A DNA stretch of 40,145 nucleotides, taken from IMG/VR virus record IMGVR_UViG_3300021509_000003. One strand, 5' to 3'. Positions within the stretch are counted from its first letter, which is position 1. Each line of letters opens with the position of its first letter. Under the pieces are notes generated by a model. The model saw nothing but the letters and a program-made list of their open reading frames with translations, searched no databases and had not been told where the DNA came from. Position numbers and translations under genes: made by a program. Origin of the DNA: a virus. Shown here one piece after another: positions 4,466 to 40,145 of the stretch.

Positions 4466-4482
4466 TTGAAACCCGCAAAATG

Positions 4483-4519
4483 CCTGCCCGACGGCAGGCG
4501 GGCCTGCCCGCAGACGGGC
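4483..4519 (-). terminator. Two tandem GC-rich hairpins immediately 3' of gene 4519-5271
   Basis: cctgcccgacggcagg (4483-4498, 6-bp stem) and gcccg-caga-cgggc (4506-4519); a short U-tract follows on the minus-strand RNA. Confidence 0.5.
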
Positions 4520-9583: not shown

Positions 9584-9637
9584 CCCGCCTGCCTGTCCCC
9601 GCCTGCCGTCGGGCAGGGGCAGACAGGCCTGCCTGTC
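9584..9637 (-). repeat. Composite GC-rich palindromic element between 9640-9999 and the next gene
   Basis: Contains cctgccgtcgggcagg (9602-9617) nested in a longer imperfect inverted repeat; same architecture as 36704-36752. Confidence 0.6.
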
Positions 9638-12390: not shown

Positions 12391-14174
12391 ATTATTCCCT
12401 CCCGCCTGCCTGTTTGCTCAACAGATAAGCCTACCTGCCTGTTCGGCAGATAGGTCTGTCCAATAGGCAAGCTATTTTTAGCCTTTTTTTCTTCTTGAGC
12501 CTTTGCCCAATTTTTGACCCATTGTTTGGCCTGGCTCACTGTCCATTTATCTTTATCAAAAATAAAAGAAATAATTTTTTTACAATCTATACAGTAACGG
12601 GCTTGTATTCCCTTTTTTTCACTGATTGTGATAGTGCGAATTTCATGACCTTTATGTTTTCCCTCTTCTCCAGGAACCGGCACATGAATTTTATTTTCTG
12701 TTACTTCAACTCGAGTTTGAATATCCTGAAATTTTACTTGCATTTGTGATATATCAGTGAGACCTAAATCATTTAAATATTGTTTTTCTTTTGCTCTTTG
12801 ATTGGCTATTTCTTGCCAATCTTTACCTTTAACAGCACATTCATCCGCCAAGCTAGTTAAACCAAGTTGCAGTTCTAACTTCTTTGCCTGAGCTTCTTTC
12901 AATGGGTCAACCCAATCAAAACCTTTGAAAATCCAGCGGTGTTTCAGCCAATTTTCAGGAGCCTTAATAAATCCCTGAACCTGCAAATAGCCGCTCACGA
13001 TGCCATATTTCACAAAGTCTTCCCAGATAGGTTGGAGAAAATATCTTTCAAGTGCTTTCCGGAATGGAAGCATATAATCCCGCAGTTCTAATTCACTATG
13101 CCGAGTAGAAGAATAATTTACATCTGATTTATCACCACTTATTTGTTCATATGAAAGATTTACGCCTCGGCCCATGCCCCGCAAAATAATTTTTACAAAA
13201 TCTGGGAAAGTGCTGCCTGGACGTTTAGGATTGATAACTTCTATTTCTTCTCCTGGGCCAAGATGTTCTACCATTCCAGGAGCTATCTCTATTTCTCTTT
13301 CTTTTGTTTCTGTATTTTGAGTGCTAGTTTGCATGCGTCCCCATATATCAGATGTCTTTATAATTATTCCAAAACAGGCAGCTACTTTGGCAGACATTAG
13401 TTCTGCTTCTAAAAGTTCTGAAAGGTGATAAGCGAGGGGAATAACAGGAGCTAAAAGTGGAATGCCCATCAATTGTCCAGGACGGCGAAAAGGAGAAAAG
13501 TGAATAATATCTTGGGCAGGAATGCGAATGGATTGTTGTTTCAAAATGAATGGATTAGAAATATCTACTTTCCAGAAATGATAAGCAACTATTTTACCTG
13601 TTTGGTCTATCTCAAAACCATTCCAGTTCCAATTATCCTTTTTAGGCGTGCCCATACCACATAAACGGCTATATTCCAGTGCTTCAAGACAAAAAGGGAA
13701 ATCTCTGGATTTATCTATAACTTTGTGGAAAAAAATGCCTCCATCTAAAAATAATTTTAAAATTGCCAGCCGTTCCAGGTCTCCAAAATGAAATTGGTCG
13801 TAATAATCGGCTACTCGTGCCCACTGTTTAAATACATTCTCAGCCTTAGAATTAAATTGTTCGTTATCTGTGAGAGCCTGTGGTGTGCTGCCTCCACCAA
13901 TCATGCGGTTAACAATCAGGTCGATACTGCCACGAACAAAAGATTCATTCCAATATAGATAATTGGCTCTAGCTCTGACTGTTTGCAGGTCTGAGAAATT
14001 ATCATTTGGACCTTCTGCGCTGGTAGTCCAATATGAAGACATGCGGTCTTTAGAAGCAGCTTTTAAATGCCTGCGAACTACTTTTTGAAGATATTCCCGC
14101 TTTGCCTTCCATTTTGGGAAAGCTGCCCAAAAAAAGGCGTCCAGGGCTTTTGAAATGGATTTTAAAATGTTCAT
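12381..14174 (-). CDS. Portal protein, lambda gpB family
   Basis: LSYEQISGDKS... and VKGKDWQEIANQRAKE align with lambda gpB VSYEQLSRNY... and KRGDDYQEIFAQQVRE. Follows a gpW-like gene with ATGA overlap. Confidence 0.85.
   Translation of the reverse strand: MNILKSISKALDAFFWAAFPKWKAKREYLQKVVRRHLKAASKDRMSSYWTTSAEGPNDNFSDLQTVRARANYLYWNESFVRGSIDLIVNRMIGGGSTPQALTDNEQFNSKAENVFKQWARVADYYDQFHFGDLERLAILKLFLDGGIFFHKVIDKSRDFPFCLEALEYSRLCGMGTPKKDNWNWNGFEIDQTGKIVAYHFWKVDISNPFILKQQSIRIPAQDIIHFSPFRRPGQLMGIPLLAPVIPLAYHLSELLEAELMSAKVAACFGIIIKTSDIWGRMQTSTQNTETKEREIEIAPGMVEHLGPGEEIEVINPKRPGSTFPDFVKIILRGMGRGVNLSYEQISGDKSDVNYSSTRHSELELRDYMLPFRKALERYFLQPIWEDFVKYGIVSGYLQVQGFIKAPENWLKHRWIFKGFDWVDPLKEAQAKKLELQLGLTSLADECAVKGKDWQEIANQRAKEKQYLNDLGLTDISQMQVKFQDIQTRVEVTENKIHVPVPGEEGKHKGHEIRTITISEKKGIQARYCIDCKKIISFIFDKDKWTVSQAKQWVKNWAKAQEEKKAKNSLPIGQTYLPNRQVGLSVEQTGRREGIICR
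12401..12460 (-). repeat. GC-rich palindromic element at the portal/capsid junction
   Basis: gcctgcctgtt (12404-12414) and cctgcctgttcggcag (12434-12449); lies in the 3' tail of the portal ORF and upstream of the capsid RBS. Confidence 0.55.
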
Positions 14175-20623: not shown

Positions 20624-20780
20624 TTTGTCTTTCCTCTTCCTCGTATAATTTTCTCCAACATTCCCAGGAACATGTGCCTTTGCTTGGAACTTTCTTCCCA
20701 CATACAGGACACTTATAACCCTTTTTTCTGCGACCCATTACTATTCGGTCGTAACTTCCATGAATTCTAACTTTTCTCAT
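20604..20780 (-). CDS. Small zinc-ribbon protein, 58 aa (below the ORF-track cutoff)
   Basis: MRKVRIHGSYDRIVMGRRKKGYKCPVCGKKVPSKGTCSWECW...; its ATG overlaps the upstream stop as ATGA. Confidence 0.4.
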   Translation of the reverse strand: MRKVRIHGSYDRIVMGRRKKGYKCPVCGKKVPSKGTCSWECWRKLYEEEERQNAGKKI

Positions 20781-21667
20781 TTTTTCTCGTCTCCTAAAGA
20801 AACTAACGAAGATTTATTTTTTTCTAAAAATGCTATTTTTTCTCTTAATTTTTCAGCTTCTTCTTTGTAGCCTGAATCATATGAATATTTTTCCAACATT
20901 TTCAGCCTTTGCCTCATTGCTTCAATTTTAGCCTCAGAACTTATTTTTGATTTGGTAGGAGGTGATTTATTATTTTTTCTCTTAATCCAGTTTAGTAAAG
21001 TAGCATAATGTGATTTATATTTTTTTCCTTTACTTGCTATATACGCACCTAACTCTTCTATTGCCTCATCAACTATTTGTTTATCAAAACGAGATTGCAA
21101 TTTTTGATATTCTTTTTCAGTTAATTTTACATTTTTAAATTCAGATAAATATAAGCAAGCGTGAGAATCCATGCTTGCGTCAGGTTTTTGTCCTTCAAAA
21201 TCTTCTGAAAGGCTTTTTTCTTCTTTCTTTTTTATTTCTTTCTTCTTTTTATATTTAACTTTAACTTCTACTTTAATATTCCAAAGGGTTTGGCAATGCT
21301 TTAAAAGCCTTTGAAAGCCTTTGAAAGCCTTTATACTATCTGGGGCTTCTTCAAGCTCTTTTTTTACTGCCTTAATCATATTAGGATTAAGGCTTTGATA
21401 TTTAGGATAATTAGGCAAAATAATAAATCCTTCATAATAAAAAACTTTTTCATCTTTCTCAAATCTTTTGATAATTTTTAAAATCATTTCTTTATCTATA
21501 CCTGTATCAAATGCGATGCGTTTTAAAGAAATTTCATAAAAACCACTAATGCGACTTAACGGATTGGTGAGAAAATATAAAAAAAGCAATTTCTCAATAG
21601 GGTCTAAATTAACTATATAATTATCATCCCAAAAATGAGATGATACATATCTTTTTACATAGCTCAT
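20777..21667 (-). CDS. Putative replication initiation/replisome organiser protein (DnaD-like)
   Basis: N-terminal winged-helix-like region LLFLYFLTNPLSRISGFYEISLKRIAFDTGI and Lys-rich linker; contains internal 10-bp tandem repeats. Confidence 0.45.
   Translation of the reverse strand: MSYVKRYVSSHFWDDNYIVNLDPIEKLLFLYFLTNPLSRISGFYEISLKRIAFDTGIDKEMILKIIKRFEKDEKVFYYEGFIILPNYPKYQSLNPNMIKAVKKELEEAPDSIKAFKGFQRLLKHCQTLWNIKVEVKVKYKKKKEIKKKEEKSLSEDFEGQKPDASMDSHACLYLSEFKNVKLTEKEYQKLQSRFDKQIVDEAIEELGAYIASKGKKYKSHYATLLNWIKRKNNKSPPTKSKISSEAKIEAMRQRLKMLEKYSYDSGYKEEAEKLREKIAFLEKNKSSLVSLGDEKK
21304..21333. repeat. Three tandem 10-bp repeats (aaagcctttg) inside the replication gene; iteron-like origin candidate
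   Basis: aaagcctttg x2 then aaagccttta, read directly. Confidence 0.6.
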
Positions 21668-22428: not shown

Positions 22429-22525
22429 AATAATTCATCATATCTCCAAGCATCCAAAAGAAATGCCCAGAAAATTTGTTTAATTACCTTTTTTAATTGA
22501 GAGGCCCCCTCCCTTTTTGGGTTCA

Positions 22526-22717
22526 TTATGAAACCTCTTTCCTTCCAAATTCCTTAAGAATGCACTCCATATAATAGAGTGCTCCCATGATTCCTAATTC
22601 CCTTTGTTTAGGTAGTTTTTTTTCTAGCTCTAATTCCTTCTCTAACTTTTCATGCCACTCTCTTTTTTTTCTCTCCCATATTTCTTTGCTTTCCCCAAAA
22701 ATTGCTTTTTTCTTCAT
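22526..22717 (-). CDS. Hypothetical small protein
   Basis: 63-aa ORF. Confidence 0.3.
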   Translation of the reverse strand: MKKKAIFGESKEIWERKKREWHEKLEKELELEKKLPKQRELGIMGALYYMECILKEFGRKEVS

Positions 22718-22731
22718 TTCTACTTTTTTAG

Positions 22732-22817
22732 CGGAGGGGGCAGGATTTGAACCTGCAGAGTTTTTAAAAACTCGTGGTTCTCAAGACCACTGCTTTAAAC
22801 CACTCGGCCACCCCTCC
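22732..22817 (-). tRNA. tRNA-Ser (anticodon UGA), type II with long variable arm; CCA not encoded
   Basis: Manual fold: acceptor GGAGGGG/CCCCTCC, anticodon stem GTGGT/ACCAC with loop CTTGAGA, variable arm GAGTTTTTAAAAACTC, T-arm GCAGG-TTCAAAT-CCTGC, discriminator G. D-stem is weak (GCC/AGC). Confidence 0.8.
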
Positions 22818-22849
22818 CTTTTTGTCTTTCTTTAAAAATTTTAAAATAT

Positions 22850-23137
22850 TCATTTTGAACTTATTTCTTCTAATTCTAGTATTTCCTCCCTTTTTTTCTT
22901 ATGTAAAGCACAATACCCTCCGCCATATCGCATGCTTATTCGACAACCCACGCAATCTTTCACTTCTTTGTTAAATTGAATCCATTGAGCTTCAATTAAC
23001 TTTTTAAGTATTAAAGTTATGGCATCTATCCTCTTTTCCAACTCGTTTATTTTTTCTTGAATCTCCATTTTTTTTCCTTTACCTATAAAATAATCAACAC
23101 CAAAAAAAAGAACACTGCCCAAAAAACAACACTCCAT
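22850..23137 (-). CDS. Small zinc-binding protein
   Basis: 95 aa with coiled coil and C-terminal CVGC...C..H cluster. Confidence 0.4.
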   Translation of the reverse strand: MECCFLGSVLFFGVDYFIGKGKKMEIQEKINELEKRIDAITLILKKLIEAQWIQFNKEVKDCVGCRISMRYGGGYCALHKKKREEILELEEISSK

Positions 23138-23187
23138 AAAATTGCCCTAAACACTCCCATTTTCTTTTCCTATTTGTATTTTAAAAT

Positions 23188-23222
23188 GGGCCGGTATTTT
23201 CTAACCCGACAACCCCCGGCCC
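23188..23222 (-). terminator. GC hairpin downstream of gene 23239-23760
   Basis: Inverted repeat GGGCCGG (23188-23194) and CCGGCCC (23216-23222); A/U-rich sequence follows on the minus-strand RNA. Confidence 0.35.
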
Positions 23223-23238
23223 CTGGGCGGCTAAGAGT

Positions 23239-23760
23239 TTAAGGAGGTGTAGGTATGCCAGCCAACTTTTGTCCTTTATTTTTCCTTAATGCTTCCACCA
23301 TAAGCCATAATTTTGTTAAAGCAGTTAATGCCTCGTAATATTCTTTTTCAAACTGTTTGCTTTCGGCATTAGAAACATTTCCATCTGCTACTACCTCAAC
23401 AAACTTATTCAGACACTCAGTGCTCTCTTTGAGTGCCTGGCTAACAAGTATTAAAGCTTTCTTATCCACTTTCCCTTCTATTTTGGGCTGTGGCACTAAA
23501 AGAAATCCGGCTTGATTAACTAAATATTCCAAAACTTCTTTTCCAACTTGTTTAGTCAAATAAGGCAAAAGAAAAGCAGGCAAATTATTGAAAGGATTTT
23601 CAGGATTGAGCCATTTATACATAGTATCTGGGCGAATGCCCAGGTGGGAAGCTACTCCATTGATTGGTAATCTTTTCAAATAGAAAACATCATTTAAAAA
23701 CCGCTTGAATTGTCTTGACCATTCTACATGATCCCAATTAATGTAGCGGATATTACCCAT
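23239..23760 (-). CDS. HTH DNA-binding regulatory protein
   Basis: INGVASHLGIRPDTMYKWL HTH near the N-terminus; overlaps the Cro-like gene by 8 nt. Confidence 0.4.
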   Translation of the reverse strand: MGNIRYINWDHVEWSRQFKRFLNDVFYLKRLPINGVASHLGIRPDTMYKWLNPENPFNNLPAFLLPYLTKQVGKEVLEYLVNQAGFLLVPQPKIEGKVDKKALILVSQALKESTECLNKFVEVVADGNVSNAESKQFEKEYYEALTALTKLWLMVEALRKNKGQKLAGIPTPP

Positions 23761-23986
23761 TATCTACTTCCTTGTGAAATTTGGATTTATGATAACAATT
23801 TTTTCTGGTAATCTTTTGTAAAAGATGAGGAAAATCTTGTGGTGATGCCCAAAATTCCAATGGAAATTCAGAAATCATTGCAAGTTTTCGAGCAACAGTG
23901 AGGGATGGTTTCTTGCGGTTGTGCAAAATATCATTTAAATGCTGGGGTGTTATCCCAGCTTTTAATGCTATGTCTTTTTGTTTCAT
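23753..23986 (-). CDS. Cro-like XRE-family HTH regulator
   Basis: DIALKAGITPQHLNDILHNRKKPSLTVARKLAMI is an XRE HTH; divergent from the repressor gene. Start lies 10 bp from the -10 hexamer, so the mRNA is probably leaderless. Confidence 0.6.
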   Translation of the reverse strand: MKQKDIALKAGITPQHLNDILHNRKKPSLTVARKLAMISEFPLEFWASPQDFPHLLQKITRKNCYHKSKFHKEVDNG

Positions 23987-23995
23987 TGTAAAATG

Positions 23996-24035
23996 ATTAT
24001 ACAGCTATTAGTTTAATTTGTCAAGGGGGAAATTA
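23996..24035 (-). promoter_or_regulatory. Perfect consensus sigma70-type promoter on the minus strand (copy 1 of a 40-bp exact repeat)
   Basis: Minus strand reads TTGACA (plus 24019-24024), 17-nt spacer, TATAAT (plus 23996-24001). Identical 40-mer at 28110-28149. Confidence 0.6.
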
Positions 24036-24049
24036 TACTAAAAGGGGAA

Positions 24050-24784
24050 TTGCAAATTAATATAGCTAGAGATTATATTGAAAATGTGAAAAAAAGAAAA
24101 AGATACTCATTGACATATCAATATTGGCTAGCTGCTTTCAAAAAAGAAATTAAAAAAAGACCACGAGGATTTCAAAAAGAATTAGCAAAACGATTACATA
24201 AAACAGCAGTACATATCAATGATATTCTGGGGCAAAGAAAAGGAGCCTCTTTAGAATTACAAGAAAAAATTGCTCAAGATCTTGGTTATTCATATAAAGA
24301 AATGATAGAAATAGGAAAACAAATTTTAGAAGAAGCAAACTTTCAACCTATTTGTTATGAAACTATCTATTTAAAAACAGAAAAAAGACCAAAAGAAAAA
24401 ATAGGGCAACGACTAAAACAAGCTAGATTAGCATTAAACCTCACCCAAAAACAATTTGCGGAACGCTTAGGACTTAAATGGCATCAAATTAAAGATATGG
24501 AATCAGGGAAGCTATTAATTAAGCCAGAAATAGCTGAACAAATAGAAAAAATTTTCTCTATAAATTTTCGTTGGCTTTTAATAGGTGAAAATGAAATGTT
24601 TTTGAAACCAGAAATTAGAGAACCTAAAGCACTTTATAAAACATTAAAAAATGATAGAGATATTGTTACTGAAAAAATAATAACCATGCTTCAAGACATG
24701 TCAGATGAGCAAAAACGAGAGATTCTACGGTATATTGAAGAAAAGAAACTTTTAACAGACTTGCTAAAAGAACGCAGGAAATAG
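24050..24784 (+). CDS. Repressor-like protein with two XRE-type HTH domains
   Basis: Two HTH units: ELAKRLHKTAVHINDILGQRKGASLELQEKIAQDLG and IGQRLKQARLALNLTQKQFAERLGLKWHQIKDMESG. No in-frame ATG near the 5' end, so start is TTG at 24050 or GTG at 24089. Confidence 0.55.
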   Translation: MQINIARDYIENVKKRKRYSLTYQYWLAAFKKEIKKRPRGFQKELAKRLHKTAVHINDILGQRKGASLELQEKIAQDLGYSYKEMIEIGKQILEEANFQPICYETIYLKTEKRPKEKIGQRLKQARLALNLTQKQFAERLGLKWHQIKDMESGKLLIKPEIAEQIEKIFSINFRWLLIGENEMFLKPEIREPKALYKTLKNDRDIVTEKIITMLQDMSDEQKREILRYIEEKKLLTDLLKERRK

Positions 24785-24860
24785 AATTAAATGTGGGTGG
24801 GTACATTTTGGGTACAAAATTGCCTCTATTTTTCACTTTATTGCTTTTTTTTGCTTCTTA

Positions 24861-24889
24861 TTGACATTTATTAAAATACTTACTACACT
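24861..24889 (+). promoter_or_regulatory. Sigma70-like promoter (TTGACA-17-TACACT) pointing into the tRNA-like att segment
   Basis: TTGACA at 24861-24866, 17-nt A/T-rich spacer, TACACT at 24884-24889. Confidence 0.35.
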
Positions 24890-24904
24890 TAAAAAATATG
24901 ATTT

Positions 24905-24946
24905 GGAGAGATGCCCGAGAGGCCGAAGGGGCACGACTGGAAATCG
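24905..24946 (+). other. attP candidate: 5' half of a type II tRNA (Ser, anticodon GGA)
   Basis: Acceptor GGAGAGA, TG, D-arm CCC-GAGAGGCCGAA-GGG, anticodon stem CACGA, loop CTGGAAA, then TCG; tRNA-likeness ends there. No T-arm or 3' acceptor strand. About 40 bp past the integrase stop. Confidence 0.45.
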
Positions 24947-24988
24947 GCTAGAAAAGTTAATAATAATAAATATTTTAGGAGATAGTGG

Positions 24989-26014
24989 TTACCCTGTGGG
25001 TCTTTTTAGTTTTTTAATTGCATTAATTAAATGTTCTTTTGTTAAATGTGAATAAATAAGTGTAGTAGATATATCACTATGCCCTAAAAGTTCTTGCACT
25101 GTTCTTAAATCCACCCCCGCCATGATAAGTTTGCTAGCAAAAGTATGTCTAAGACAATGTAAAGTGTAACCTTCAAGACCTGCTTGTTTAAACCAGGTAG
25201 AGAATTTTTTACTTACATATTTAGGGTCAAAACTTTTAAATATTTTGCCAATTTTAATAACTTCCGGATCATTATTCATTTCTTGGATAATTTCTTTCAA
25301 TTCAGAACTAATTGGTACATATCTTATTTTCTTGGTTTTGGTTTTTCTAAAAAGGATAAAACCATCTTTTATGTCTTGCCAATTAAGATTAAGCACTTCG
25401 TTTCTTCTGGCTCCTGTATTTAGATAAAATTCAAATAGCCAACGCCATTGTGTGTCTTTGATTTGCTTTCTCACAGCATTTATTTGTTTATCTGTAAGAA
25501 ATTTAAGCGGTTTTTCCTGGATTGATAGTTGTTTATAACCTGATAATTGATTATACTTTAAATATCCCCATTCAACTGCTTTTGAAAAAGCAGCCTTTAT
25601 GGTGCGGATGTCTATATTACATGTAGCTCTGGATTGGCCTTGTTTAAGCCTCATGTTAACTAATTTATCTAAATGTTTCTTATTGATTGCTTTAATATCT
25701 AAATTGCCAGTAATCTGTCTGAGTAATCTAAAAGCATTCTGAGCAATACGATAGCTGGCTTCAGATAAATATTTTTCAATATAGTCAAGATATTCTTGAA
25801 CAAAATCGTCTAGTCTAACAGTTCTTTCAAGAAGGCTAAGTTTTCTTAATAAATATTCCCTTTTTGCTTTGGTGAAAATAACCTGGGCCTCAGCTTTATT
25901 TTTTGTGCCGAGGCTTTTTTTCCGCCGTCGGCCATTCTCAGACCAATAAATATACCATACGCCATTGTCTCTCTTTTTTAGGCGCATGATTATGCTTAGC
26001 CTATCAGGAATCAT
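24989..26014 (-). CDS. int: Tyrosine site-specific integrase
   Basis: C-terminal catalytic region HCLRHTFASKLIMAGVDLRTVQELLGHSDISTTLIYSHL with the R...HxxR...Y signature. Confidence 0.9.
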   Translation of the reverse strand: MIPDRLSIIMRLKKRDNGVWYIYWSENGRRRKKSLGTKNKAEAQVIFTKAKREYLLRKLSLLERTVRLDDFVQEYLDYIEKYLSEASYRIAQNAFRLLRQITGNLDIKAINKKHLDKLVNMRLKQGQSRATCNIDIRTIKAAFSKAVEWGYLKYNQLSGYKQLSIQEKPLKFLTDKQINAVRKQIKDTQWRWLFEFYLNTGARRNEVLNLNWQDIKDGFILFRKTKTKKIRYVPISSELKEIIQEMNNDPEVIKIGKIFKSFDPKYVSKKFSTWFKQAGLEGYTLHCLRHTFASKLIMAGVDLRTVQELLGHSDISTTLIYSHLTKEHLINAIKKLKRPTG

Positions 26015-26017
26015 TTG

Positions 26018-26806
26018 TCAAATTCCTAAAATTTTTTCTAATTTAGGTAATTCCTGTAATTTGGGGAAATTAGGGAATTCTTGCAATTCAGGTAAATCAG
26101 GATATGCCCTAAAAAGATTATCCTTTAAAAATACTGGTATATTATTTTCTTTTGCTTTTTTAATTATTTTCTCTACCCACTCACGCTTAGGCGGTTTATA
26201 TGGATTTGTTTGAGCACCAATAATAACCCAATTAGGAAATTGCTCCCCTTCAAAATTATTAAAATAATCCACAAAAACTTCAGCTAGTAAGGGTTCAAAA
26301 GAAATGAACTTAATATTGTCATTTTTCAAAAATCGTCTTAAAACTACATCCCTTCTTTCTCCATAAGTAATTGTAACCCCTAACCAGCAATTCTTTGGGA
26401 ATTTATATTTTGTATATGTCCCAGGAAATTTAGTAAGGAATTGAAAAATGTGTTGTGGATAACGTTCAATCTTATCTAGCACAAAAGACATCCATTCTTT
26501 TTTCCACCATCTAATATCACTCATAGAATTTACAAAAATCCGTAAACGTTTTAAGGGATATAAAAGTTTGCCATAATTTTTAAACATAAAAATAGGTTCA
26601 AATTGTTTTATTTGTGCCCGTAAAAGAGGTTTTGTAAGAGGTGAAGTTTCAATATTATGCCTTTTCCTATATTCAAATTCTGCATCTGCAATTTTCTTAA
26701 AAAATCTTTTGGCTATTTTACGAGCATAACAATACTCACACCCTGTTTTACATCCCCAAACTGGGTTCCAAACCCTATCACACCATTCTATTTTTGTTTT
26801 ACCCAT
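26018..26806 (-). CDS. Gp37/Gp68-like protein with N-terminal CxxxCxxC cluster and C-terminal PELQEFP repeats
   Basis: N-terminus TKIEWCDRVWNPVWGCKTGCEYCYA; C-terminus DLPELQEFPNFPKLQELPKL encoded by DNA repeats. Family name is from memory of the motif. Confidence 0.4.
   Translation of the reverse strand: MGKTKIEWCDRVWNPVWGCKTGCEYCYARKIAKRFFKKIADAEFEYRKRHNIETSPLTKPLLRAQIKQFEPIFMFKNYGKLLYPLKRLRIFVNSMSDIRWWKKEWMSFVLDKIERYPQHIFQFLTKFPGTYTKYKFPKNCWLGVTITYGERRDVVLRRFLKNDNIKFISFEPLLAEVFVDYFNNFEGEQFPNWVIIGAQTNPYKPPKREWVEKIIKKAKENNIPVFLKDNLFRAYPDLPELQEFPNFPKLQELPKLEKILGI
26021..26087. repeat. Three copies of a 13-bp AATTCYTNNAATT motif at ~27-bp spacing just upstream of int
   Basis: aattcctaaaatt (26021), aattcctgtaatt (26049), aattcttgcaatt (26075). 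Confidence 0.5.
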
Positions 26807-28109: not shown

Positions 28110-28149
28110 ATTATACAGCTATTAGTTTAATTTGTCAAGGGGGAAATTA
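28110..28149 (-). promoter_or_regulatory. Perfect consensus sigma70-type promoter (copy 2 of the 40-bp repeat)
   Basis: Identical 40-mer to 23996-24035; about 110 bp upstream of the start at 28001. Confidence 0.55.
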
Positions 28150-28243
28150 ATCCAATAGTTATATTAAAGAAAAAATTTATTCATATTTAGCCGTAGAGAC
28201 AATTTCTTGTATAAGAAGGTAGTTTATGTCATGTTAAGGCAAA

Positions 28244-28260
28244 CCTGCCCGCAGACAGGC
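28244..28260 (-). terminator. GC-rich palindrome at the end of the tail operon
   Basis: cctgcccgcagacaggc; differs at one position from the 17-mer at 4503-4519; followed by UUU on the minus-strand RNA. Confidence 0.4.
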
Positions 28261-28276
28261 AAATATGAAGGTGTTT

Positions 28277-28606
28277 TTACGCTGGTTCATTGCAACTCAT
28301 AAGTTTTTTGAATATACTAGGCTTGCATGGATAAAATCCATCTTCACCTTTAACTATATAGTCTCCTATATTGGCTTTCCTTGCTCCTTTAGGTGTAAAT
28401 ATCTTCAATCCATTTTTTCTCACCACGTTTTCAAACTCTTCCCAAGTCCACTTTCTTGCTGAGGGGTGCAATCCTGTAAAGCCAATAACTTCTCTTAAAT
28501 TATCACCAGTCCATTGTATTGCCTCTATTACAATCGGCTTTTTTCTATACTTTTTAATTGGCATAATGTTCCTCCTGTTAAAGGTATTTTTACGCTGCTC
28601 CTTCAA
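28277..28606 (-). CDS. Hypothetical protein (last gene of tail operon)
   Basis: 109-aa ORF. Confidence 0.4.
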   Translation of the reverse strand: MKEQRKNTFNRRNIMPIKKYRKKPIVIEAIQWTGDNLREVIGFTGLHPSARKWTWEEFENVVRKNGLKIFTPKGARKANIGDYIVKGEDGFYPCKPSIFKKLMSCNEPA

Positions 28607-30953
28607 AATGTCCTGCTGTGAGATATGTATTTGCTACTCCTGGGATTTGTCCTAACCAAAGCAAGTTGCCATCAAAATCAAAGAAGGCAAAAATCCTTGC
28701 TATTATTTCTTCTTGAAAAACATGTTCTGTCCAATCATTAGGATATCCTTCTTGATACCATTTTTCGTCAAGTTCTTTGCTGATTTGCACTATTGCATAT
28801 GTTATTAATATTTTTTCTTCTCCAATAGCTATCCCTACATCTCTAATTTCTGTGCCGCTGCATCCCCAACTTGAGCCATAATAATTTCCATTATATTTTA
28901 AAGCTTCAACAAAAATATATTCTGCGTCTGTAATGTTTTGTATTTCTTTATCAGCAAAATCACATGTAATCTTCCATTTTCCTTGTTCCTCATCGTATGC
29001 ATACCCTATACCAAGTCTTGTAAATCCCGAATTTAAAATATTTGCTCTGTGTCCTTCTGATTGCATCCATTCATTAAAAAGTGTTTCAATTGCTTCTTCT
29101 GTCAAATCTTCATTAACTACTTCTCCTATGTTTTCTCCCCATACATTATATATTATTCCCTGTTCATCATATCGTTGTTGAGGATTTTTACCATCACTAC
29201 CAGTATGAGAGAAAAAATGATTTCTAGCCATATCATTTGAATGCCTTTGTGCGACTACATCTAATGCCCCATCTTCTTCAAGTGCTTCCAATCCTTCATC
29301 AGCTCTTGCCTGATTATGCAATTCTAAAAATTTACTTCTGATATTATCACTTTGAAGTTGTGCTACTTCTTTTGGGATTTCCAGCCTTACTACTTTGCTT
29401 CCTATTTTTACAAAATATTCAAGTTTGAATTTCTGGAATGCCTTAAATTCATCCCAATAATCATCATTATCACTATCTACAAGTTCATTCCAATAGTCAA
29501 AAGCTCTGCTGACAGTATAAACACAAACTTCAATCCAATCCATTCCTATTTGTTTTCTACAATAATTTAAGATAGTTGCATGACAGGGATGGGGAAAGCG
29601 TTCTGATCCCATATCCAGAATTGCAGGATATTTAGCACTATATGTAGTAGTTCCAGCTACAGTGCGAATTTTTGTTTGATGTTCTACATCTATATATCTC
29701 ACAGGAACAGGCATTGCATTTTCTACAGGAGTAGCTGTCCAGTCTTGATATGCTTCGGTCCAACAATCAAAATTGATTTGTAATTTTGCTTCCAGTGTTC
29801 GATGATTATCTTCGTCATTTATGGTCATTACATTTTCTATACTGTGTGGGTAAACCGTGCCATTTACAATGTCAAATCTATGTTTACGAATTCGTTTGAC
29901 AAATGGTGACATCATATGTGGAGAGGCTTCAATTAAATTTATTTCCCAGTCATGATCATCTATAATGTCTGTATATATAGGAATAAAACTAAATATAGTT
30001 TCAAGACTTATCTCACCTCCCATTAAAGGGTAATCTGGTATTTCATTATTAAATTCTTCTTGATGTTCATTCACATAGTTTTGAACATATTGTTTACAAA
30101 AATCTTCTAAATTTATGTCTTGTTCTTTTGTTTTATTGAGTAGATTAAAAGCCTGAAGTTTCATTTTGTTATAATCTGCCCAATATGTCCAGGACCCGTT
30201 TTGCACTTCTTTTATTTTTAAATCAAAATCACTTTTGATAATTATCAACCTGTCATCGCTTACCACTGCAGAATCTACAAATCCATATCCTGTTCTAACA
30301 AATAGTGATGTCATATTATTGTCTCGTTCTCTTCTGTTTGATGCCCATCCCCCATATTCTCTAAACATATCAGGAAGCCAGCCTGAAACATCTACTTCTG
30401 CGATTTGAATTTTCGCAAAAGGGCGCCTTTCACAGGTTCTCATAGTATCAAGCACAGTCGGCTCGTAGTTTATTGAGATGTATTCATAGAAATTTTTTAT
30501 ATCATAGAAAGGCTCGCCTAGCAGAAATTTATATTTTCCTTGATGCTCCCACCAATGGAAAAGGTGAGTTTTGGGCACAACAATTCCTTCGTTCTTAAAC
30601 TCCTTTTCCAAATCAATCAGTTTTTCCCTCAACTCCTCTTTTATTCTAAAATCATTTAATCCGCTTAATTGGACTACTTTCCCACTCTCAAGGCAAAGAC
30701 AAAAATAGCTCTTTGCGCCTCCTCTATATCTTACAATCAAAAGCATACTTCCTTCAGGGCAACTTTCTTGTGGCCTCACTGCTCCAGCAGAAATAAAAAC
30801 CCTTCCCTTTCTACTTGTATGAAGCAAAACAAGGTCGTTAAGGACCACTACATAGTCTCCTACTCTAAATTTGTATTTACTTGCAGGACGCCTTATATGG
30901 CCATCGCTACATAAAATTAATCCATTGTCTAAAACTTTAACTATATAAATCAT
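28590..30953 (-). CDS. Large tail-associated protein with C-terminal CAP/SCP (YkwD-like) domain
   Basis: C-terminal third: HNQARADEGLEAL...HSNDMARNHFFSHTGSDG...WGENIGE...WMQSEGHRANILNSGFTRLGIGYA matches the CAP signature. Confidence 0.55.
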   Translation of the reverse strand: MIYIVKVLDNGLILCSDGHIRRPASKYKFRVGDYVVVLNDLVLLHTSRKGRVFISAGAVRPQESCPEGSMLLIVRYRGGAKSYFCLCLESGKVVQLSGLNDFRIKEELREKLIDLEKEFKNEGIVVPKTHLFHWWEHQGKYKFLLGEPFYDIKNFYEYISINYEPTVLDTMRTCERRPFAKIQIAEVDVSGWLPDMFREYGGWASNRRERDNNMTSLFVRTGYGFVDSAVVSDDRLIIIKSDFDLKIKEVQNGSWTYWADYNKMKLQAFNLLNKTKEQDINLEDFCKQYVQNYVNEHQEEFNNEIPDYPLMGGEISLETIFSFIPIYTDIIDDHDWEINLIEASPHMMSPFVKRIRKHRFDIVNGTVYPHSIENVMTINDEDNHRTLEAKLQINFDCWTEAYQDWTATPVENAMPVPVRYIDVEHQTKIRTVAGTTTYSAKYPAILDMGSERFPHPCHATILNYCRKQIGMDWIEVCVYTVSRAFDYWNELVDSDNDDYWDEFKAFQKFKLEYFVKIGSKVVRLEIPKEVAQLQSDNIRSKFLELHNQARADEGLEALEEDGALDVVAQRHSNDMARNHFFSHTGSDGKNPQQRYDEQGIIYNVWGENIGEVVNEDLTEEAIETLFNEWMQSEGHRANILNSGFTRLGIGYAYDEEQGKWKITCDFADKEIQNITDAEYIFVEALKYNGNYYGSSWGCSGTEIRDVGIAIGEEKILITYAIVQISKELDEKWYQEGYPNDWTEHVFQEEIIARIFAFFDFDGNLLWLGQIPGVANTYLTAGHFEGAA

Positions 30954-32787: not shown

Positions 32788-35528
32788 GATAATAATTGCT
32801 CCTGTGGAGTTGGTGTTGGGGGAGGTGGTGAAGGTGGTTCAGGAGGCGGGACAACAGAAGGACAAAGGCTTACTTCAGCCTTTACCCAGTGGTGTTCAAG
32901 TGTAGTTTCTACAGCAAATCCTTCCTTTTCATGCATTAAAATCATATTTTTAAATTTAATGTTTCCATTCTCATCATAATTAAATATATCCTGCCAATAT
33001 TCTGGTTTTTTCTTCCAAACTAAACTTTCAAAAACAGCCGGGTAATAATATTGCCCATATCTAAAACACGGTTTGATATAACCTAACAAATTGCCTTCAT
33101 AATCAAAAAATAATGGTCCTTGATGCTTTTGTATATAGTTAGATTGAGACCCTAGCCATTCTTCATATTGCCAGATAGCTGCATATGGCCGTAATATAAA
33201 AAAGTCCCTCCCGCAATACCATAGACGCCATTCGTTAGAAGTTGGTTTATCCCCTGCCATGATTTGCGTTTCTGAAATCAAACTTAAGAATTCATCATAT
33301 TTCAATAACCACAAGCTTCCCGGATCTTTTCTAGCTAACATATATAAATATTCACCATCTGTGTTTAAAGAAAACACAGATTTATATTCATTTTTCAGCC
33401 AAGTACTTATTGGAATATGATATTGTTCATTTTCCCCGCCTGCCTGTCGGGCAGGGTTCCATATTATTGTCATTCCTGTTACTTCGTCTGTAATTGAGGA
33501 AGCAAAATAAAATATTTTTTCTTTTAGCTTAATTAGTGCAAAAGCAGGGTCATTTAACTCCTGGGCAGGAGGTTTATTTTCAATGTTTATTTCCCAAACA
33601 ACTTCTTTTTTCATTAAATCATAACAAAAAAGCTTCGGATTATCTGAATCTATATCAGCAAAACCAAAAGCTGATGTATTCTCCACAAAACTTATATTTC
33701 CAGGCAAATTAGGGAGGATTCCCCAGTCTGATGTGCTACTTTCTCCTATATATGATATAGCTTCCCATCCATTCCCAATTACAACCCTCAATGGGATTTG
33801 AAAATCTGCTTTCTGTAAGTCAGTTCGGGATTTTACTGCATAATCAACAAATTCAACACTGCATCTAATACCATCTTGAGCCAATGTCGTTGTTGAGGAG
33901 ACTCCACATAACACATTATCTGCAAAAGATAATGTAGTTTTAACACCCTCTAAATTTGGGATAGACAATAAAATTTGTGATATAAGTCCTTGTTTTTCGG
34001 CATTTAAATTAATTTTAGCCTGTATTGCCTTCCAATCTGTAGTATATTTTATGGCAAATGGCTGTTCTATATATCTTTCATAATCCGTTGTAATAGTAGT
34101 AGGGTCAACTAATTCATTATCAACAGCATTATCTTCCCAGGCCTCAGTAATTACAAAAGCCCTTTCTCCTACTTCATAGGCAGGTCTAAAATTACCTATA
34201 TATACTTTATGACAATCATATCTATCCCAACAAAAGCCCGTAAATCTTCGCTGCCCATATTGACTAGAGCTGTAATAATGCCAGATAGTGTGCCCATCTT
34301 CTAAATTAATATTGTAATCTTCAACAAAAAATTCTGTGCAATCTTGACATACAGCACTTCTATACAGCCCAATTCTAATTTCACCGTTTGAATTTCTTTT
34401 AAATAAATCAATACCAATTGCTTCTTCTGTCCCACCAACCTTAAAAGTCTTTCCATCTACAGCTATTTCTTCCCCATCCGTATTAACAGGCATATTTTTG
34501 ACCCATTCAAATTGCTCTTTTTCTTTGTCATACAGAGCAAGTCGAGTTTGGGCAGGATTGCCATATCGCCATGCATATACAATATATTTATCACAAGCAC
34601 TGATATGTATTTCTGAGACATATTCTCCCCATATTTCATCAAGCGGCGGAGAACAAGCCACTCCTTCCTTGTCCTGCATAATATCAAGCGTAATTTTTGA
34701 AGCTACACCATCTTCGGCAAATGCAGCTTTTGAAGCCACACCATCTTCAGCAAAAGAACATTTACAGGGGATTAAAGATTGATAGCAAGGCGCCAGAAAG
34801 GTTGAAGCTTTTATTCCTGCTGTTTTTTCTATATTTGTGTCATCTGTTTTGTATGAATATACCTGCTGGGGCCGATAACTTCCTTTTGCACATATTAATA
34901 CATCTACTCTTTTTTGACTAAGTGCCACATCTACAGCATGATAATCTGCATTATTAAACTTCTCCTCAACAATTGTTTTCTTTAGATTGCCTTCTAAGTC
35001 ATAAATAAAAACAATCCTTCTATTTGGCTCTAAAATTGCGATTTCTTGATTTTCAGGGTCATAATCATATCTTGCCAATCTAGCAAAATATTCAAGCGCT
35101 CCTGAATGATATAACTGTTCTTGATATGTATAATTGGTCCCTTGTTGTTTTTTCCATTTCGTAATCGCCCCAAAATTTGAAAGAGTATAAAGATAATCAT
35201 TTCTATAAAGATAGTCAGGCTCCTTAAGATGGTCACAGTTTGTTTTTGTGCCATTTATACCTGTAGATAAAAGTAGAGCATCACCTTTTACGCCTGATTT
35301 CCCTACATTCAAAAGATAGCAGCTAGATTTTGCTGCCTCAACCAATATATATGTATGTGATTTTACACCAGAATAAACAGAAGGAAGAACAAGTATTGCT
35401 TGTGATTTTACGCCTTGTCTTTTACTTTCACCTTCACTGAGAGTGCAAAAGTATCCTTTATATTTTCTCTTTGTTCTTTCTCCAATGCGAGCCTTTTTAT
35501 TAGCCTGTATTCCTTCATATTCTGCCAT
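32784..35528 (-). CDS. Large tail fibre/host-specificity candidate
   Basis: 914-aa Trp/Tyr-rich ORF, the largest in the tail block; Pro-rich C-terminus, internal 11-aa tandem repeat, and an in-frame palindrome copy at 33439-33455. Confidence 0.45.
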   Translation of the reverse strand: MAEYEGIQANKKARIGERTKRKYKGYFCTLSEGESKRQGVKSQAILVLPSVYSGVKSHTYILVEAAKSSCYLLNVGKSGVKGDALLLSTGINGTKTNCDHLKEPDYLYRNDYLYTLSNFGAITKWKKQQGTNYTYQEQLYHSGALEYFARLARYDYDPENQEIAILEPNRRIVFIYDLEGNLKKTIVEEKFNNADYHAVDVALSQKRVDVLICAKGSYRPQQVYSYKTDDTNIEKTAGIKASTFLAPCYQSLIPCKCSFAEDGVASKAAFAEDGVASKITLDIMQDKEGVACSPPLDEIWGEYVSEIHISACDKYIVYAWRYGNPAQTRLALYDKEKEQFEWVKNMPVNTDGEEIAVDGKTFKVGGTEEAIGIDLFKRNSNGEIRIGLYRSAVCQDCTEFFVEDYNINLEDGHTIWHYYSSSQYGQRRFTGFCWDRYDCHKVYIGNFRPAYEVGERAFVITEAWEDNAVDNELVDPTTITTDYERYIEQPFAIKYTTDWKAIQAKINLNAEKQGLISQILLSIPNLEGVKTTLSFADNVLCGVSSTTTLAQDGIRCSVEFVDYAVKSRTDLQKADFQIPLRVVIGNGWEAISYIGESSTSDWGILPNLPGNISFVENTSAFGFADIDSDNPKLFCYDLMKKEVVWEINIENKPPAQELNDPAFALIKLKEKIFYFASSITDEVTGMTIIWNPARQAGGENEQYHIPISTWLKNEYKSVFSLNTDGEYLYMLARKDPGSLWLLKYDEFLSLISETQIMAGDKPTSNEWRLWYCGRDFFILRPYAAIWQYEEWLGSQSNYIQKHQGPLFFDYEGNLLGYIKPCFRYGQYYYPAVFESLVWKKKPEYWQDIFNYDENGNIKFKNMILMHEKEGFAVETTLEHHWVKAEVSLCPSVVPPPEPPSPPPPTPTPQEQLLS
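34697..34762. repeat. Two tandem 33-bp units inside the 914-aa gene
   Basis: tgaagctacaccatcttcggcaaa... repeated with about 3 mismatches; encodes SKAAFAEDGVA twice. Confidence 0.6.
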
Positions 35529-36701: not shown

Positions 36702-37049
36702 TTACCTGCCTGTTCCCTGCCCGACTGGCAGGCGGGGGCAGACAGGCTTGCCTAGTTTTAAAACATTTTTATATGGAAAATATGAAAGACTATAAAAGAC
36801 CTCAAGCACTTTCTCTCCTTTAAATATGTATCCCCTAACACTATCTCCGAACACTCCTCCAAATTCCACTCCTATTATTTGTCCTTTTCCACCCATACTT
36901 GCTATTGCATGCCTTACAAAATAATAGCTATCTGCATTCGTGATTTTTTTGCCATTTAGTTCAAGCTCAACAATAGGTTTAGAAATATCAGGAAAATAAC
37001 CATCTTTTTCTGTCCATACACTACCATCTATTAACGTTGCTTTCCACAT
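36702..37049 (-). CDS. Hypothetical tail protein
   Basis: 115-aa ORF with AAGGAG RBS; its last 12 codons run through the palindromic element. Confidence 0.4.
   Translation of the reverse strand: MWKATLIDGSVWTEKDGYFPDISKPIVELELNGKKITNADSYYFVRHAIASMGGKGQIIGVEFGGVFGDSVRGYIFKGEKVLEVFYSLSYFPYKNVLKLGKPVCPRLPVGQGTGR
36704..36752 (-). repeat. Composite GC-rich palindromic element (paralogue of 9584-9637)
   Basis: Contains cctgcccgactggcagg (36716-36732); flanks parallel those of 9584-9637. Confidence 0.6.
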
Positions 37050-37105: not shown

Positions 37106-37708
37106 GTTATCCAATGTTCCTTCAGCTGGTTTATGCAGCACTATATTGTCTGAGCTACAATTTGCATCAGCTGGTTTCAATGTATTACCACTGCTCCCCG
37201 GTGTTAGCTGTGTCCATACCGGTGTGTCTTCTGTTCCTCCAGCACTAGCGTCATTAAAATACCATGTTAGTGTCGGCGCTGCTCCAGAATAACTATATCT
37301 AACAAATATCACACAATCTAAATCAGCAGGCACGCTGGCATCATAAGGTATTTCCCAACAGAGATTAAATCGAACACTTTCATTTTGTCCTGGTGCAGCA
37401 GCGGATAAATTTACATAACTATCACTTCCCTTTAATCTGTTTGCCGTGGCTCCACCTGCTGTAGCATTTGCAGGCTTCCAATCGGCATTTGAAGGCGGAT
37501 TATCAGTAGTAGCTACAGCGCATAACATAGGTTTATTCCCATTTCCAGCAGTCCCAGTGAAAATTTCATGATTAGTGCTATTAACATTAAAGTCGTCCCA
37601 TGCTTCCAGTTTGGGCGGTTCTGCCAGTGCTTCTGAAAACTGCACCCGAAGAACATTTTGTGCCGTGCTGTTATTTCCTGCTCCTTTTACTTCGCTTGGT
37701 ATTGCCAT
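37085..37708 (-). CDS. Virion structural protein (hypothetical)
   Basis: 207-aa Ala/Gly/Thr/Asn-rich ORF with strong RBS (GGGAGGA); flanked by hairpin elements on both sides. Confidence 0.4.
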   Translation of the reverse strand: MAIPSEVKGAGNNSTAQNVLRVQFSEALAEPPKLEAWDDFNVNSTNHEIFTGTAGNGNKPMLCAVATTDNPPSNADWKPANATAGGATANRLKGSDSYVNLSAAAPGQNESVRFNLCWEIPYDASVPADLDCVIFVRYSYSGAAPTLTWYFNDASAGGTEDTPVWTQLTPGSSGNTLKPADANCSSDNIVLHKPAEGTLDNPALWVT

Positions 37709-37720
37709 TTTAATCCTCCC

Positions 37721-37760
37721 CGCCTGCCTGCCTGCCAGTTGGGCAGGTTAAGCAGGCCTT
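37721..37760 (-). repeat. GC-rich palindrome CCTGCC-agttg-GGCAGG between tail genes
   Basis: cctgccagttgggcagg at 37731-37747, preceded by gcctgcctg. Confidence 0.55.
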
Positions 37761-38512: not shown

Positions 38513-40145
38513 TATGTTCCCCCTCTTGCCTGATACAACTCAAATTCTTCTGATAGCCGTTCCATCAAGTTTTGCATCCGCATAGGCATATTTTTTGTGA
38601 TATTGCCAATATGAAGATGGAAATTTTTTTGCATACTTTGTGGGCCTGCCATTGGAAAAGAAAAAGAAGGAGAAAGATGTGGTAAATTGAATCTCAATGT
38701 TAAGTCTTTTACTCCGCTTATAGCAGTTATTTTTTGGCCAACATCACGCAGAGTTTCAGATATAGGCCTTATTGGAGATGCTCTCCCTTTTATATCAATA
38801 ATAACTTCCTGGTTTTTTATTTCTTTTAATTTGGCTTTAAGTTCTTCTATTTTAGCTTTTGCTTTATTTATATCTGCATCTATTTCAGTTAATGTTTTCT
38901 TTTTAGACAATTCATCTAATTGTCCTTTTATATTTGCTAATTTTTCTTCATACTTTTTAAGTTGTGCATTTAAATCCTCTGTATTTTTTTGTTGAGTTGC
39001 AAGATTTTCCTCGGCCTTTGCCTTCATTTCTTCATGTATGCGGAGTAGCAAATTGCCTGCATCCTGCACCCCTCTTTCTGCCTCTTCCTGGTCTTTTAGA
39101 CCCTCAGCTATGTTTTGTGCTTCCTGGGCCAATTTAGCTGCCTTTTCCAGTGAACCCCCATAATATGCCTCAGCTGCTGCGGCCAGTTTCTCTTGATATT
39201 GTCTTTGTCTATCCAGGGCACGTTCTTCTTCAGACATACCTCTTTGGCGAATAGCATGGATTTTATCCTGGGTAGTCTGAACGATATTTTCAATGGCTTC
39301 CTGTTGCTTCTTAACTTCTGCAGCATATTGTTTTTCAAGTTGTATGGCAGCATTATATTTTTGTCTAATGGTTCTAATAAGGCTTTGAATATTTTTTTCT
39401 TCTTCCTTTATTGCCCCCTGACGCAACTTTCCTAACTGATTTAATTCTTGTTGTGCCTGCTTTAATTCATTTGAGGCTTGCACTAGTTGTTTTTGATTTT
39501 GAGTAAGTTTTTGAGCACTCTCAGCCGCTTTTTCAAATGGGTCCTTTTCCATTTCTTCAGCCAAATCCGTCAGCATTTCTTCGCCAAGACGATCAAGTTC
39601 CTCCAATTCTTTCTTGAGACGGCCAATGCCACCCTTAAAGCCTGTCTTCAACCAATTGGCAATTATTTTAAATTTTTCTATCCAGGTAGCAAATTTTATT
39701 CCAAGAGCTTTTACTCCCCAAAACATTGGAGTAATTACATTTTTTAAAAACCAATTAGCAGCACTTGTGACTTCTTGCAGTGCTGGCAATAATGCTTCAC
39801 CTAAACGAGCTTTAAAGATTTTGATTTCCTGATTTAATTTAGCCTGTTGACCTTGAAATTCACCTGCCATTTTGGCTGCATTACCAACCATTGGCTCAGT
39901 TTCTTGCAGAATACCTAAATATTCTGCTTGCCTTTTTTCGGCTAAAGTCAATTGCCCTACGGTCTTGCCTATTTTTTCTGCATATTCCTTCCACATTACT
40001 GAAACATTTTTAGTGACGCCTGCATTGTCCACCAAAATTGAATTTTCATTTTTAAGACCTTCAGTAGCGGACACAATAGCCTCAGCCATAGACAAATGGC
40101 CTTGCCTATTGACTGCTGCTGCATCTTTTAATCTATTTAACAAAG
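38512..40145 (-). CDS. Tail tape measure protein, C-terminal part (continues into 1-587)
   Basis: Long Ala/Gln/Lys/Glu-rich coiled-coil protein, open at the window edge, followed by distal tail genes. Confidence 0.75.
   Translation of the reverse strand, partial: LLNRLKDAAAVNRQGHLSMAEAIVSATEGLKNENSILVDNAGVTKNVSVMWKEYAEKIGKTVGQLTLAEKRQAEYLGILQETEPMVGNAAKMAGEFQGQQAKLNQEIKIFKARLGEALLPALQEVTSAANWFLKNVITPMFWGVKALGIKFATWIEKFKIIANWLKTGFKGGIGRLKKELEELDRLGEEMLTDLAEEMEKDPFEKAAESAQKLTQNQKQLVQASNELKQAQQELNQLGKLRQGAIKEEEKNIQSLIRTIRQKYNAAIQLEKQYAAEVKKQQEAIENIVQTTQDKIHAIRQRGMSEEERALDRQRQYQEKLAAAAEAYYGGSLEKAAKLAQEAQNIAEGLKDQEEAERGVQDAGNLLLRIHEEMKAKAEENLATQQKNTEDLNAQLKKYEEKLANIKGQLDELSKKKTLTEIDADINKAKAKIEELKAKLKEIKNQEVIIDIKGRASPIRPISETLRDVGQKITAISGVKDLTLRFNLPHLSPSFSFPMAGPQSMQKNFHLHIGNITKNMPMRMQNLMERLSEEFELYQARGGT
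40019..40145. repeat. Terminal direct repeat, copy 2; identical to 1-127
   Basis: Exact 127-bp identity with the window start. Confidence 0.95.

Follow-up and report, generated by a model that had tools for sequence, protein, structure and literature searches.

The window analyzed here (the whole stretch of 40,145 nucleotides of IMG/VR record IMGVR_UViG_3300021509_000003) most probably carries the attachment site (attP) of a temperate phage with a tyrosine integrase that targets bacterial tRNA-Ser(GGA) genes for recombination in their anticodon-loop region, in a mirror-image configuration with the 5' fragment of the tRNA gene on the phage. This reading is drawn from a block of identity with bacterial tRNA genes, the attP form of the site and the junctions seen in relatives, from which we infer the crossover point, the activity of the promoter and the function of the hybrid tRNA.

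The first 127 nt of the window are repeated exactly at its end (1-127 = 40019-40145), an overlap typical of assembly at k=127, so that the contig closes into a circle of 40,018 bp. Given this terminal overlap and the circular genome, the sequence is that of a temperate phage in its circular form, and the site is in the attP state, not at a prophage junction. The phage has a GC content of ~35% and carries almost all of its genes on the minus strand, and no match was found when region 22500-26100 was compared with GenBank phages by megablast. The lysogeny region and the site consist of the following features:

20777-21667, minus strand: replication organiser
22731-22817, minus strand: complete tRNA-Ser(UGA) gene (ARAGORN, Rfam)
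23239-23760, minus strand: CII-like gene, near the cI-like gene
23753-23986, minus strand: cro-like gene, adjoining the cI-like gene and divergent from it
24050-24784, plus strand: cI-like HTH repressor (PF01381 HTH_3, E = 1.5e-12; PHROG transcriptional regulator/repressor families)
24795-24819, plus strand: P-arm repeated motif GGGTGGGTACATTTTGGGTACAAAA, putative arm-type integrase binding site from alignment with relatives
24861-24889, plus strand: predicted sigma-70-like promoter TTGACA-17-TACACT (10 of 12 consensus positions)
24905-24946, plus strand: tRNA-Ser(GGA) 5' part, identity block common to the predicted attB (42/42 identity to genomic genes)
24937-24943, plus strand: anticodon loop CTGGAAA, putative 7-bp overlap (crossover) region; the block ends 3 nt after the loop
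24947-25002, plus strand: P' arm, composed of a non-tRNA spacer and, overlapping the integrase stop, the motif TGGTTACCCTGTGGGTC (24986-25002)
24989-26014, minus strand: tyrosine integrase (PF00589, E = 1e-31; phrog_1 integrase, E = 9e-74)

The cI-like gene flanks the P arm. The complete tRNA-Ser(UGA) gene reported in the initial annotation is present, with its position corrected from 22732-22817 to 22731-22817 and its orientation given as the minus strand. Together with an adjacent 63-aa ORF it makes up a cassette of 324 bp (22494-22817), which is absent from a variant (L058) that is 98.5% identical to the window and keeps attP; the cassette junction in this variant shows CTTTTT microhomology, and a 41-nt repeat occurs 300 bp apart (22366 and 22666). 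Other repeats were also observed in this genome. Copies of a 49-nt repeat (92% identical) at 23996-24044 and 28110-28158 contain a perfect minus-strand promoter (TTGACA-17-TATAAT), one copy lying in the cI/cro intergenic region and the other 4.1 kb away, upstream of minus-strand genes towards int, and the pair may represent a duplicated operator and promoter under one repressor. Despite the AT-rich genome, GC-rich repeats (CCGCCTGCCTG / GGCAGGC) recur at 4480-4519, 9612-9634, 12379-12417, 28237-28260, 33426-33454, 36707-36753 and 37697-37738, often just upstream of minus-strand gene starts, and may be hairpins or a common regulatory or leader element. Among the late genes, a 787-aa protein (28590-30953, minus strand) contains a CAP/SCP domain (PF00188, E = 2e-20).

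The plus strand at 24905-24946 reads GGAGAGATGCCCGAGAGGCCGAAGGGGCACGACTGGAAATCG, which occurs only once in the window and comprises the acceptor strand, the D arm, the 5' anticodon stem, the anticodon loop and 3 nt of the 3' stem. The initial annotation had recognized here, just past the integrase stop, the 5' part of a tRNA-Ser gene whose likeness to tRNA is lost after 3 nt of the 3' stem, and both points were borne out by comparison with real genes. The 30-mer at 24917-24946 matches 47 loci in a species-level genome collection, all of them inside tRNA-Ser(GGA) genes (from Syntrophales, Nitrospirota, Thermodesulfobacteriota and others); the complete 42 nt of the window are found in most of these genes. 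In 100 shuffles of the window, no match to the fragment was obtained with up to 3 mismatches allowed. Directly after the block comes T in all the genomic genes (TGTG in nearly all, by which the stem CACGA/TCGTG is completed) and GCTAG in the phage, and the resemblance therefore stops 3 nt into the 3' anticodon stem. A class II cloverleaf forms when a genomic 3' part is added to the fragment; alone, the fragment lacks the T arm and the 3' acceptor strand and is not a complete tRNA gene. Verification by a tRNA finder, which the initial annotation had proposed, gave no tRNA at this position: as expected for half a gene, the fragment was called neither by ARAGORN nor by Rfam (at the gathering threshold, at E<=10, or with the stretch cut at 24947 for truncated hits). 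Two other origins of the fragment were considered and rejected, namely a copy of the phage tRNA-Ser(UGA) gene (only ~60% identity) and one half of a split tRNA (no matching 3' half occurs anywhere in the window).

The search for tRNA genes matching the fragment gave 47 tRNA-Ser(GGA) loci, and no lysogen junction was found among them. The scanned genome contigs contained tRNA genes and no lysogen of the phage; none of the 47 genomes with a matching tRNA has the P' sequence, and none comes near the 35% GC of the phage. An integrase was detected near only one of the 47 loci (L035, 28% identity), in the conventional position 3' of the tRNA, and the 39-mer was not found in IMG/VR. In two Deltaproteobacteria MAGs (L045 7662-7885 and L046 5522-5743), a tRNA-Ser(GGA) 5' fragment was observed that extends into the T arm and then diverges, with a complete tRNA-Ser(GGA) copy ~190 nt downstream; these fragments may be the scar of a 5'-type element using the T loop, or the product of a local duplication.

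The region around the fragment (24790-25002, ~200 bp) has the anatomy of an attP site, with GGGTAC/GGGTGC-type repeats on both arms, an anticodon stem-loop at the inner edge of the block and the adjacent integrase stop. The P-arm motif aligns with GTGGGTGCATTTTGGGTGCAAAAG and with GGGTATGCAAA repeats in contigs of two integrase relatives (L056 and L226, respectively), at an equal distance upstream of the tRNA start. The promoter that the initial annotation had placed about 16 bp upstream of the tRNA is present as TTGACA-17-TACACT, ending 15 nt before tRNA +1, and its geometry (TTGAC-17-TAnAnn, 13-15 nt to tRNA +1) is kept in the same two relatives; as a sequence match, however, it is not above chance (7 sites in a 1.2 kb AT-rich stretch versus 5.0 +/- 2.1 in shuffles). 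This promoter points at int, and no terminator-like site was found in a scan between it and the int 3' end.

The inner limit of the block is also conserved. Identity ends 0-1 nt past the anticodon loop in L052, L226, L227, L237, L109 and L176, and the limit in the window fits the anticodon-loop sublocation class of attP sites described in PMC8371274. On the other arm, a counterpart of the P' motif, TGGGTGC(A/T)AATTGGGTG, follows the anticodon loop at a distance of 40-45 nt in L225, L226, L052 and L227; this spacing is conserved although the tRNAs differ, which puts the loop at the center of the site. The core at 24937-24943 is 45 nt outside the int ORF, and only the P' motif overlaps the last int codons.

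The same arrangement was recovered repeatedly. The cI-like gene, motif, promoter, tRNA half and int are contiguous in ~15 other contigs that are 98.5-100% identical to the window and come from at least four assembly sources, including the following:

JGI: L058, L228, L231
ENA: L218-L222, L234
Logan: L233, L235

Samples containing the phage are SRR7051071, SRR7051057, SRR32473251/52, JGI 3300021488 and 3300021512, and ERZ272482xx. Exact-protein look-ups of int (in its 341-aa and 332-aa forms) and of cI returned attP-form contigs only, with no attL or attR. In some samples assembled by Logan at k=31, int-side contigs start at 24917 (first 31-mer 24917-24947) and the cI-side contig ends at 24934 (last 31-mer 24904-24934), which implies that a second sequence in these samples shares exactly 24905-24946 with the phage, but not the bases at 24904 and 24947. 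The stretch common to phage and bacteria thus extends from tRNA +1 to 3 nt past the anticodon loop. These contig breaks are consistent with the presence of attB or of prophage junctions, and they would equally be produced by any bacterium in the sample that has this tRNA 5' part.

The integrase is convergent with the tRNA fragment, its stop codon being 42 nt away, and an alternative start at 25987 would give a protein of 332 aa. Across 24 aligned relatives, R203, K226, H286, R289 and H312 are invariant and Y321 is nearly invariant. The protein search returned integrase relatives at 98%, 75%, ~50% identity and below, of which a few are named (Desulfurobacterium, Hydrogenivirga and Ca. Magnetobacterium), and no close integrase relatives were found in IMG/VR with the window integrase, P0006 and P0009 as queries. 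All six typeable relatives with an integrase identity of at least 40% are linked to a tRNA 5' half that is cut at the anticodon loop. Past the int stop, L225 (75% integrase identity) has the reverse complement of ...CCGAAGGGGCACGACTGGAAATCG followed by GCTAGAGAAG, in which the half is as in the window, as are the first six P' bases (GCTAGA), and the remaining P' arm has diverged. The half is that of tRNA-Ser(GGA) in L226 (53%; 3458-3498, minus strand), where it is cut directly after the loop, and that of tRNA-Thr(CGT) in L052 (49%) and L227 (50%), where it is cut 1 nt past the loop; L237 (40%) has a tRNA-Leu(CAA) half (10931-10970, minus strand) that begins 7 nt past the int stop. The half is convergent with int in L225, L226, L052, L227 and L237.

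Chromosomal genes are found beyond the half in three of these contigs, including those for amidase, LpxK, RodA, PBP2 and MreBCD in L052, Cbi transporter genes in L227, and MnmE, YidC and RnpA in L237, and on the int side of the same halves lie mobile-element genes (Xis-type HTH_17, RecT, primase and tape measure). This combination of host genes beyond the half and mobile genes on the int side marks these as integrated elements, with a truncated host 5' half at the junction next to int. The int-side junctions of L052, L226, L227 and L237 are of the type predicted for the phage of the window. The prophage of L052 continues in L249, the rest of that contig, which ends with the far junction not yet reached. 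In L238-L240 (39%), there is an extra ORF after int and no recognizable tRNA piece, and the single cI homologue that lies on a long contig (P0123, L248) amounts to a small remnant beside a tRNA-Leu gene and was uninformative.

Some of these contigs have additional features. In L226, three GTATGCAAA repeats and a TTGACA-17-TATAAA promoter were observed in an element-type layout (3520-3640, minus strand) upstream of the truncated 'host' half, with ~600 nt of AT-rich non-coding DNA between them and the host genes, as if an earlier element of this type had left its remains there (serial tRNA-promoter replacement) or a tandem integration had occurred. The prophage of L052/L249 (a 146-kb MAG contig) carries a DarT/macro-domain (DarTG) pair directly after the S24-peptidase repressor, as well as an HD-domain gene and an SMC/AAA gene, i.e., defense-type cargo within the lysogeny module.

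The opposite junction, with a rebuilt tRNA, was seen in two relatives. In L056 (48%), an element with PolB, DUF3987 and int genes lies 5' of a complete tRNA-Ser(GGA) gene, with tRNA-Arg and rho coming after it. Over the 140 nt preceding this tRNA, L056 aligns with 24785-24904 of the window and with the upstream region of L226, and the three have in common a doubled GGGT(A/G)C, CTATTTT, TTGAC, a 17-nt spacer, TAnAnn and 13-15 nt to tRNA +1. By comparison, the upstream regions of the 47 genomic genes are mutually different, and none has the doubled P-arm motif at that position. From the element-type upstream region of L056, which the genomic genes lack, it follows that the promoter and 5' part in L056 belong to the element and are joined to a 3' part from the host. 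In L109 (28%), an entire 6-kb element (with an AAA_25 helicase-like gene and int) is present with both of its ends, a 40-nt fragment at 5060-5099 and a complete tRNA-Leu(CAA) gene at 11154-11242, and the host RNase II gene lies outside. The direct repeat flanking this element corresponds exactly to nt 1-40 of tRNA-Leu, starting at +1. An intact tRNA plus a displaced 5' fragment is thus seen as a whole in L109 and as single junctions in L052, L226, L227, L237 and L056. In L056 and L109, int is on the P side, in contrast to the P' side in the window, and a rebuilt tRNA was seen only in this other gene order.

In a rough neighbor-joining tree without support values, the integrases of the window, L225, L226, L056, L052, L227 and L237 form one clade, in which all seven members are of the 5' type; this integrase clade appears to be uniformly 5'-type. 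Distant relatives (22-35% identity) have mostly conventional 3' pieces and in a few cases 5' pieces (L086, L070, L176 and L185). Two of the latter, L176 (10933-10969) and L185 (9317-9358), are IMG/VR contigs with integrases of ~25-29% identity and tRNA 5' halves that are convergent with the int stop; the sequence of the L176 half reads as Arg(ACG) cut directly after the anticodon loop, and the L185 half is Ser(UGA)-like according to a BLAST match spanning tRNA nt 1-42.

The phage carries tRNA nt 1-42 together with its own upstream region (the P arm and a sigma-70-like promoter), and according to the proposed mechanism crossover would take place in or next to the anticodon loop, with 24937-24943 as the probable 7-bp overlap. 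At the cI end of the prophage, the order would be cI, P arm, phage promoter, phage 5' half and host 3' half, which would yield an intact tRNA-Ser(GGA) gene transcribed from phage DNA; the expected form of this junction is 24850-24946 of the window followed by TGTG...TCTCTCCGCCA. At the int end, the displaced host promoter and the truncated 5' half would be followed by P' and int and would point into the int 3' end, with a junction of the form non-phage upstream sequence, 24905-24946 and then GCTAGAAAAGTTAATAA. After integration, the cI-like gene would lie at the prophage end beside the rebuilt tRNA. The proposal of the initial annotation that a tRNA is rebuilt after a crossover in the anticodon region is supported, as junctions of the predicted types occur in L052, L226, L227, L237, L056 and L109.

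Several other explanations were weighed against this mechanism. In one of them, the site would serve tRNA-dependent lysogeny, in which the host tRNA-Ser(GGA) gene is destroyed and not rebuilt and the phage tRNA-Ser(UGA) at 22731-22817 compensates for it. A tRNA-Ser with U34 could read some of the same codon box, which agrees with this idea, as does the complete tRNA-Ser encoded by the phage, and the strategy is established in actinobacteriophages (PMC10865867). [quoted passage not shown] Because of the short cores, the other anticodon and the missing cassette, this explanation is highly improbable. The chance is slighter still that the fragment is a passenger relic, i.e., a host 5' half and promoter acquired by imprecise excision (in the style of specialized transduction) or by an old rearrangement and without a role in integration. 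Its 100% identity to bacterial genes and the lack of a lysogen junction among contigs carrying int or cI would suit such an origin, but the layout recurs with integrases of 75%, 53%, 50%, 49% and 40% identity and with three tRNAs, the cut invariably falls at the anticodon loop, from which the P' motif keeps a fixed spacing, and the upstream region aligns between elements and not with host upstream regions, which are mutually different.

It is also conceivable, though improbable, that the segment is primarily a regulatory transcription unit, which produces the truncated half as antisense RNA into the int 3' end or as a tRNA-half RNA, with the rebuilding of a tRNA being secondary or absent. The direction of the promoter towards int with no terminator-like site between them, and the convergent layout kept in L225, L226, L052, L227, L237, L176 and L185, are in line with such a function; yet it would leave unexplained why identity reaches exactly to tRNA +1 and why direct repeats flank the element in L109. 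A regulatory role is compatible with integration by the 5' mode as an addition to it, not as a replacement. The last alternative, that prophage ends were falsely joined during assembly through the 42-nt repeat and the attP form is not physical, draws on the fact that a repeat common with bacterial DNA lies exactly at the joint. The k141-named ENA contigs and the 127-nt overlap of the window imply k-mers longer than this repeat, and the joint is spanned at k = 127-141; it is also spanned in Logan contigs (L233 and L235) from samples without graph branching and recurs in JGI, ENA and Logan contigs of different samples. Such contigs, spanning the site with k longer than the repeat, practically exclude an artifact.

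With integration at the anticodon loop of tRNA-Ser(GGA) as the preferred reading, some further consequences may be considered. A tRNA-type promoter would be directed into the int 3' end in both the attP and the prophage states and, speculatively, might regulate int. A broader proposal, which is unlikely as it stands, is that the clade (from hydrothermal and anaerobic-sediment-type metagenomes) always uses the 5' mode, so that the prophage controls the expression of a host tRNA, and that convergent transcription silences int according to the integration state. If this were true, each integration would permanently replace the promoter of a host tRNA with an element-borne one beside the arm sites of Int, a strong host tRNA promoter would be left firing through the truncated half antisense into int, and the element-type arm repeats upstream of the 'host' half in L226 would be a trace of serial promoter replacement. 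The site provides a clean, sequence-defined example of mirror-image tRNA integration in a free phage genome in which the promoter, arm motifs and core are readable. It should be useful for those who map islands and prophages and expect 3' fragments, as well as for annotation, since tRNA finders miss tRNA halves, and it is relevant to a possible rewiring of host tRNA expression by mobile elements.

The fragment in attP is usually the 3' part of the tRNA gene, which leaves the host promoter in place, 'with very few exceptions' in bacteria (PMC8371274). The rarity of a 5' fragment was nevertheless overrated in the initial annotation, as such cases had already been documented (PMC4383910; bioRxiv 10.1101/410191; PMC8371274): the arrangement is rare but known, and no new kind of mechanism is involved. 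A possible novelty is an entire integrase clade with the 5' mode and a conserved P-arm/promoter layout. The Islander survey reported a 5' tDNA fragment in 159 of 3919 islands (Hudson, Lau and Williams 2015, PMC4383910), and the bacterial 5'-fragment cases are attributed in PMC8371274 to Williams 2002. Like the phage of the window, these islands have a tyrosine integrase, an attP with an end fragment of the target tRNA gene and a crossover centered on the anticodon loop, and the displaced fragment is the 5' one, so that the rebuilt gene is without its host promoter; the present case differs in being the free (attP) form of an uncultured low-GC phage, with a recognizable promoter and arm motifs.

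In pelagiphages HTVC109P and HTVC120P, a phage-borne partial 5' end complements the split host tRNA, as established by junction analysis (Zhao et al., bioRxiv 10.1101/410191). Their junctions were demonstrated experimentally. These SAR11 podoviruses have a genome organization unrelated to that of the phage studied here, and their rebuilt tRNAs contain base changes or deletions, while the fragment in the window has the exact sequence of genomic genes; their description includes no conserved promoter or arm architecture.

Conventional anticodon-loop attP sites, such as those of P22 and HP1, share with the present site a loop that serves as the overlap between inverted stem arms and a lambda-like arm-type site of ~200-250 bp beside int. 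They carry the tRNA 3' part and keep the host promoter, and the site in the window is their mirror image. This conventional class is described in PMC8371274, following Williams 2002. In tRNA-dependent lysogeny, the core of ~10 bp is too short for a tRNA to be rebuilt, and the phage tRNA, which is required for lysogeny, agrees with the target in isotype and anticodon (Guerrero-Bustamante and Hatfull 2024, PMC10865867). A tyrosine integrase targeting a tRNA gene and a phage tRNA for the same amino acid are common to both cases, but the window has a 42-nt block and a different anticodon, and its phage tRNA is missing from the nearly identical L058.

As far as the pTN3-like integrases of Thermococcales (Cossu et al. 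2017) are described in PMC8371274, they also resemble the phage of the window, in that their attB coincides with a tRNA gene's 5' half and DNA of the element drives expression of the recombinant tRNA. In the same description, these archaeal enzymes are 'suicidal' integrases with attP inside int, a gene that integration splits, and the tRNA is driven by the int promoter. By comparison, attP in the window lies outside int except for the last few codons, int is convergent with the tRNA half, and a separate promoter precedes that half.
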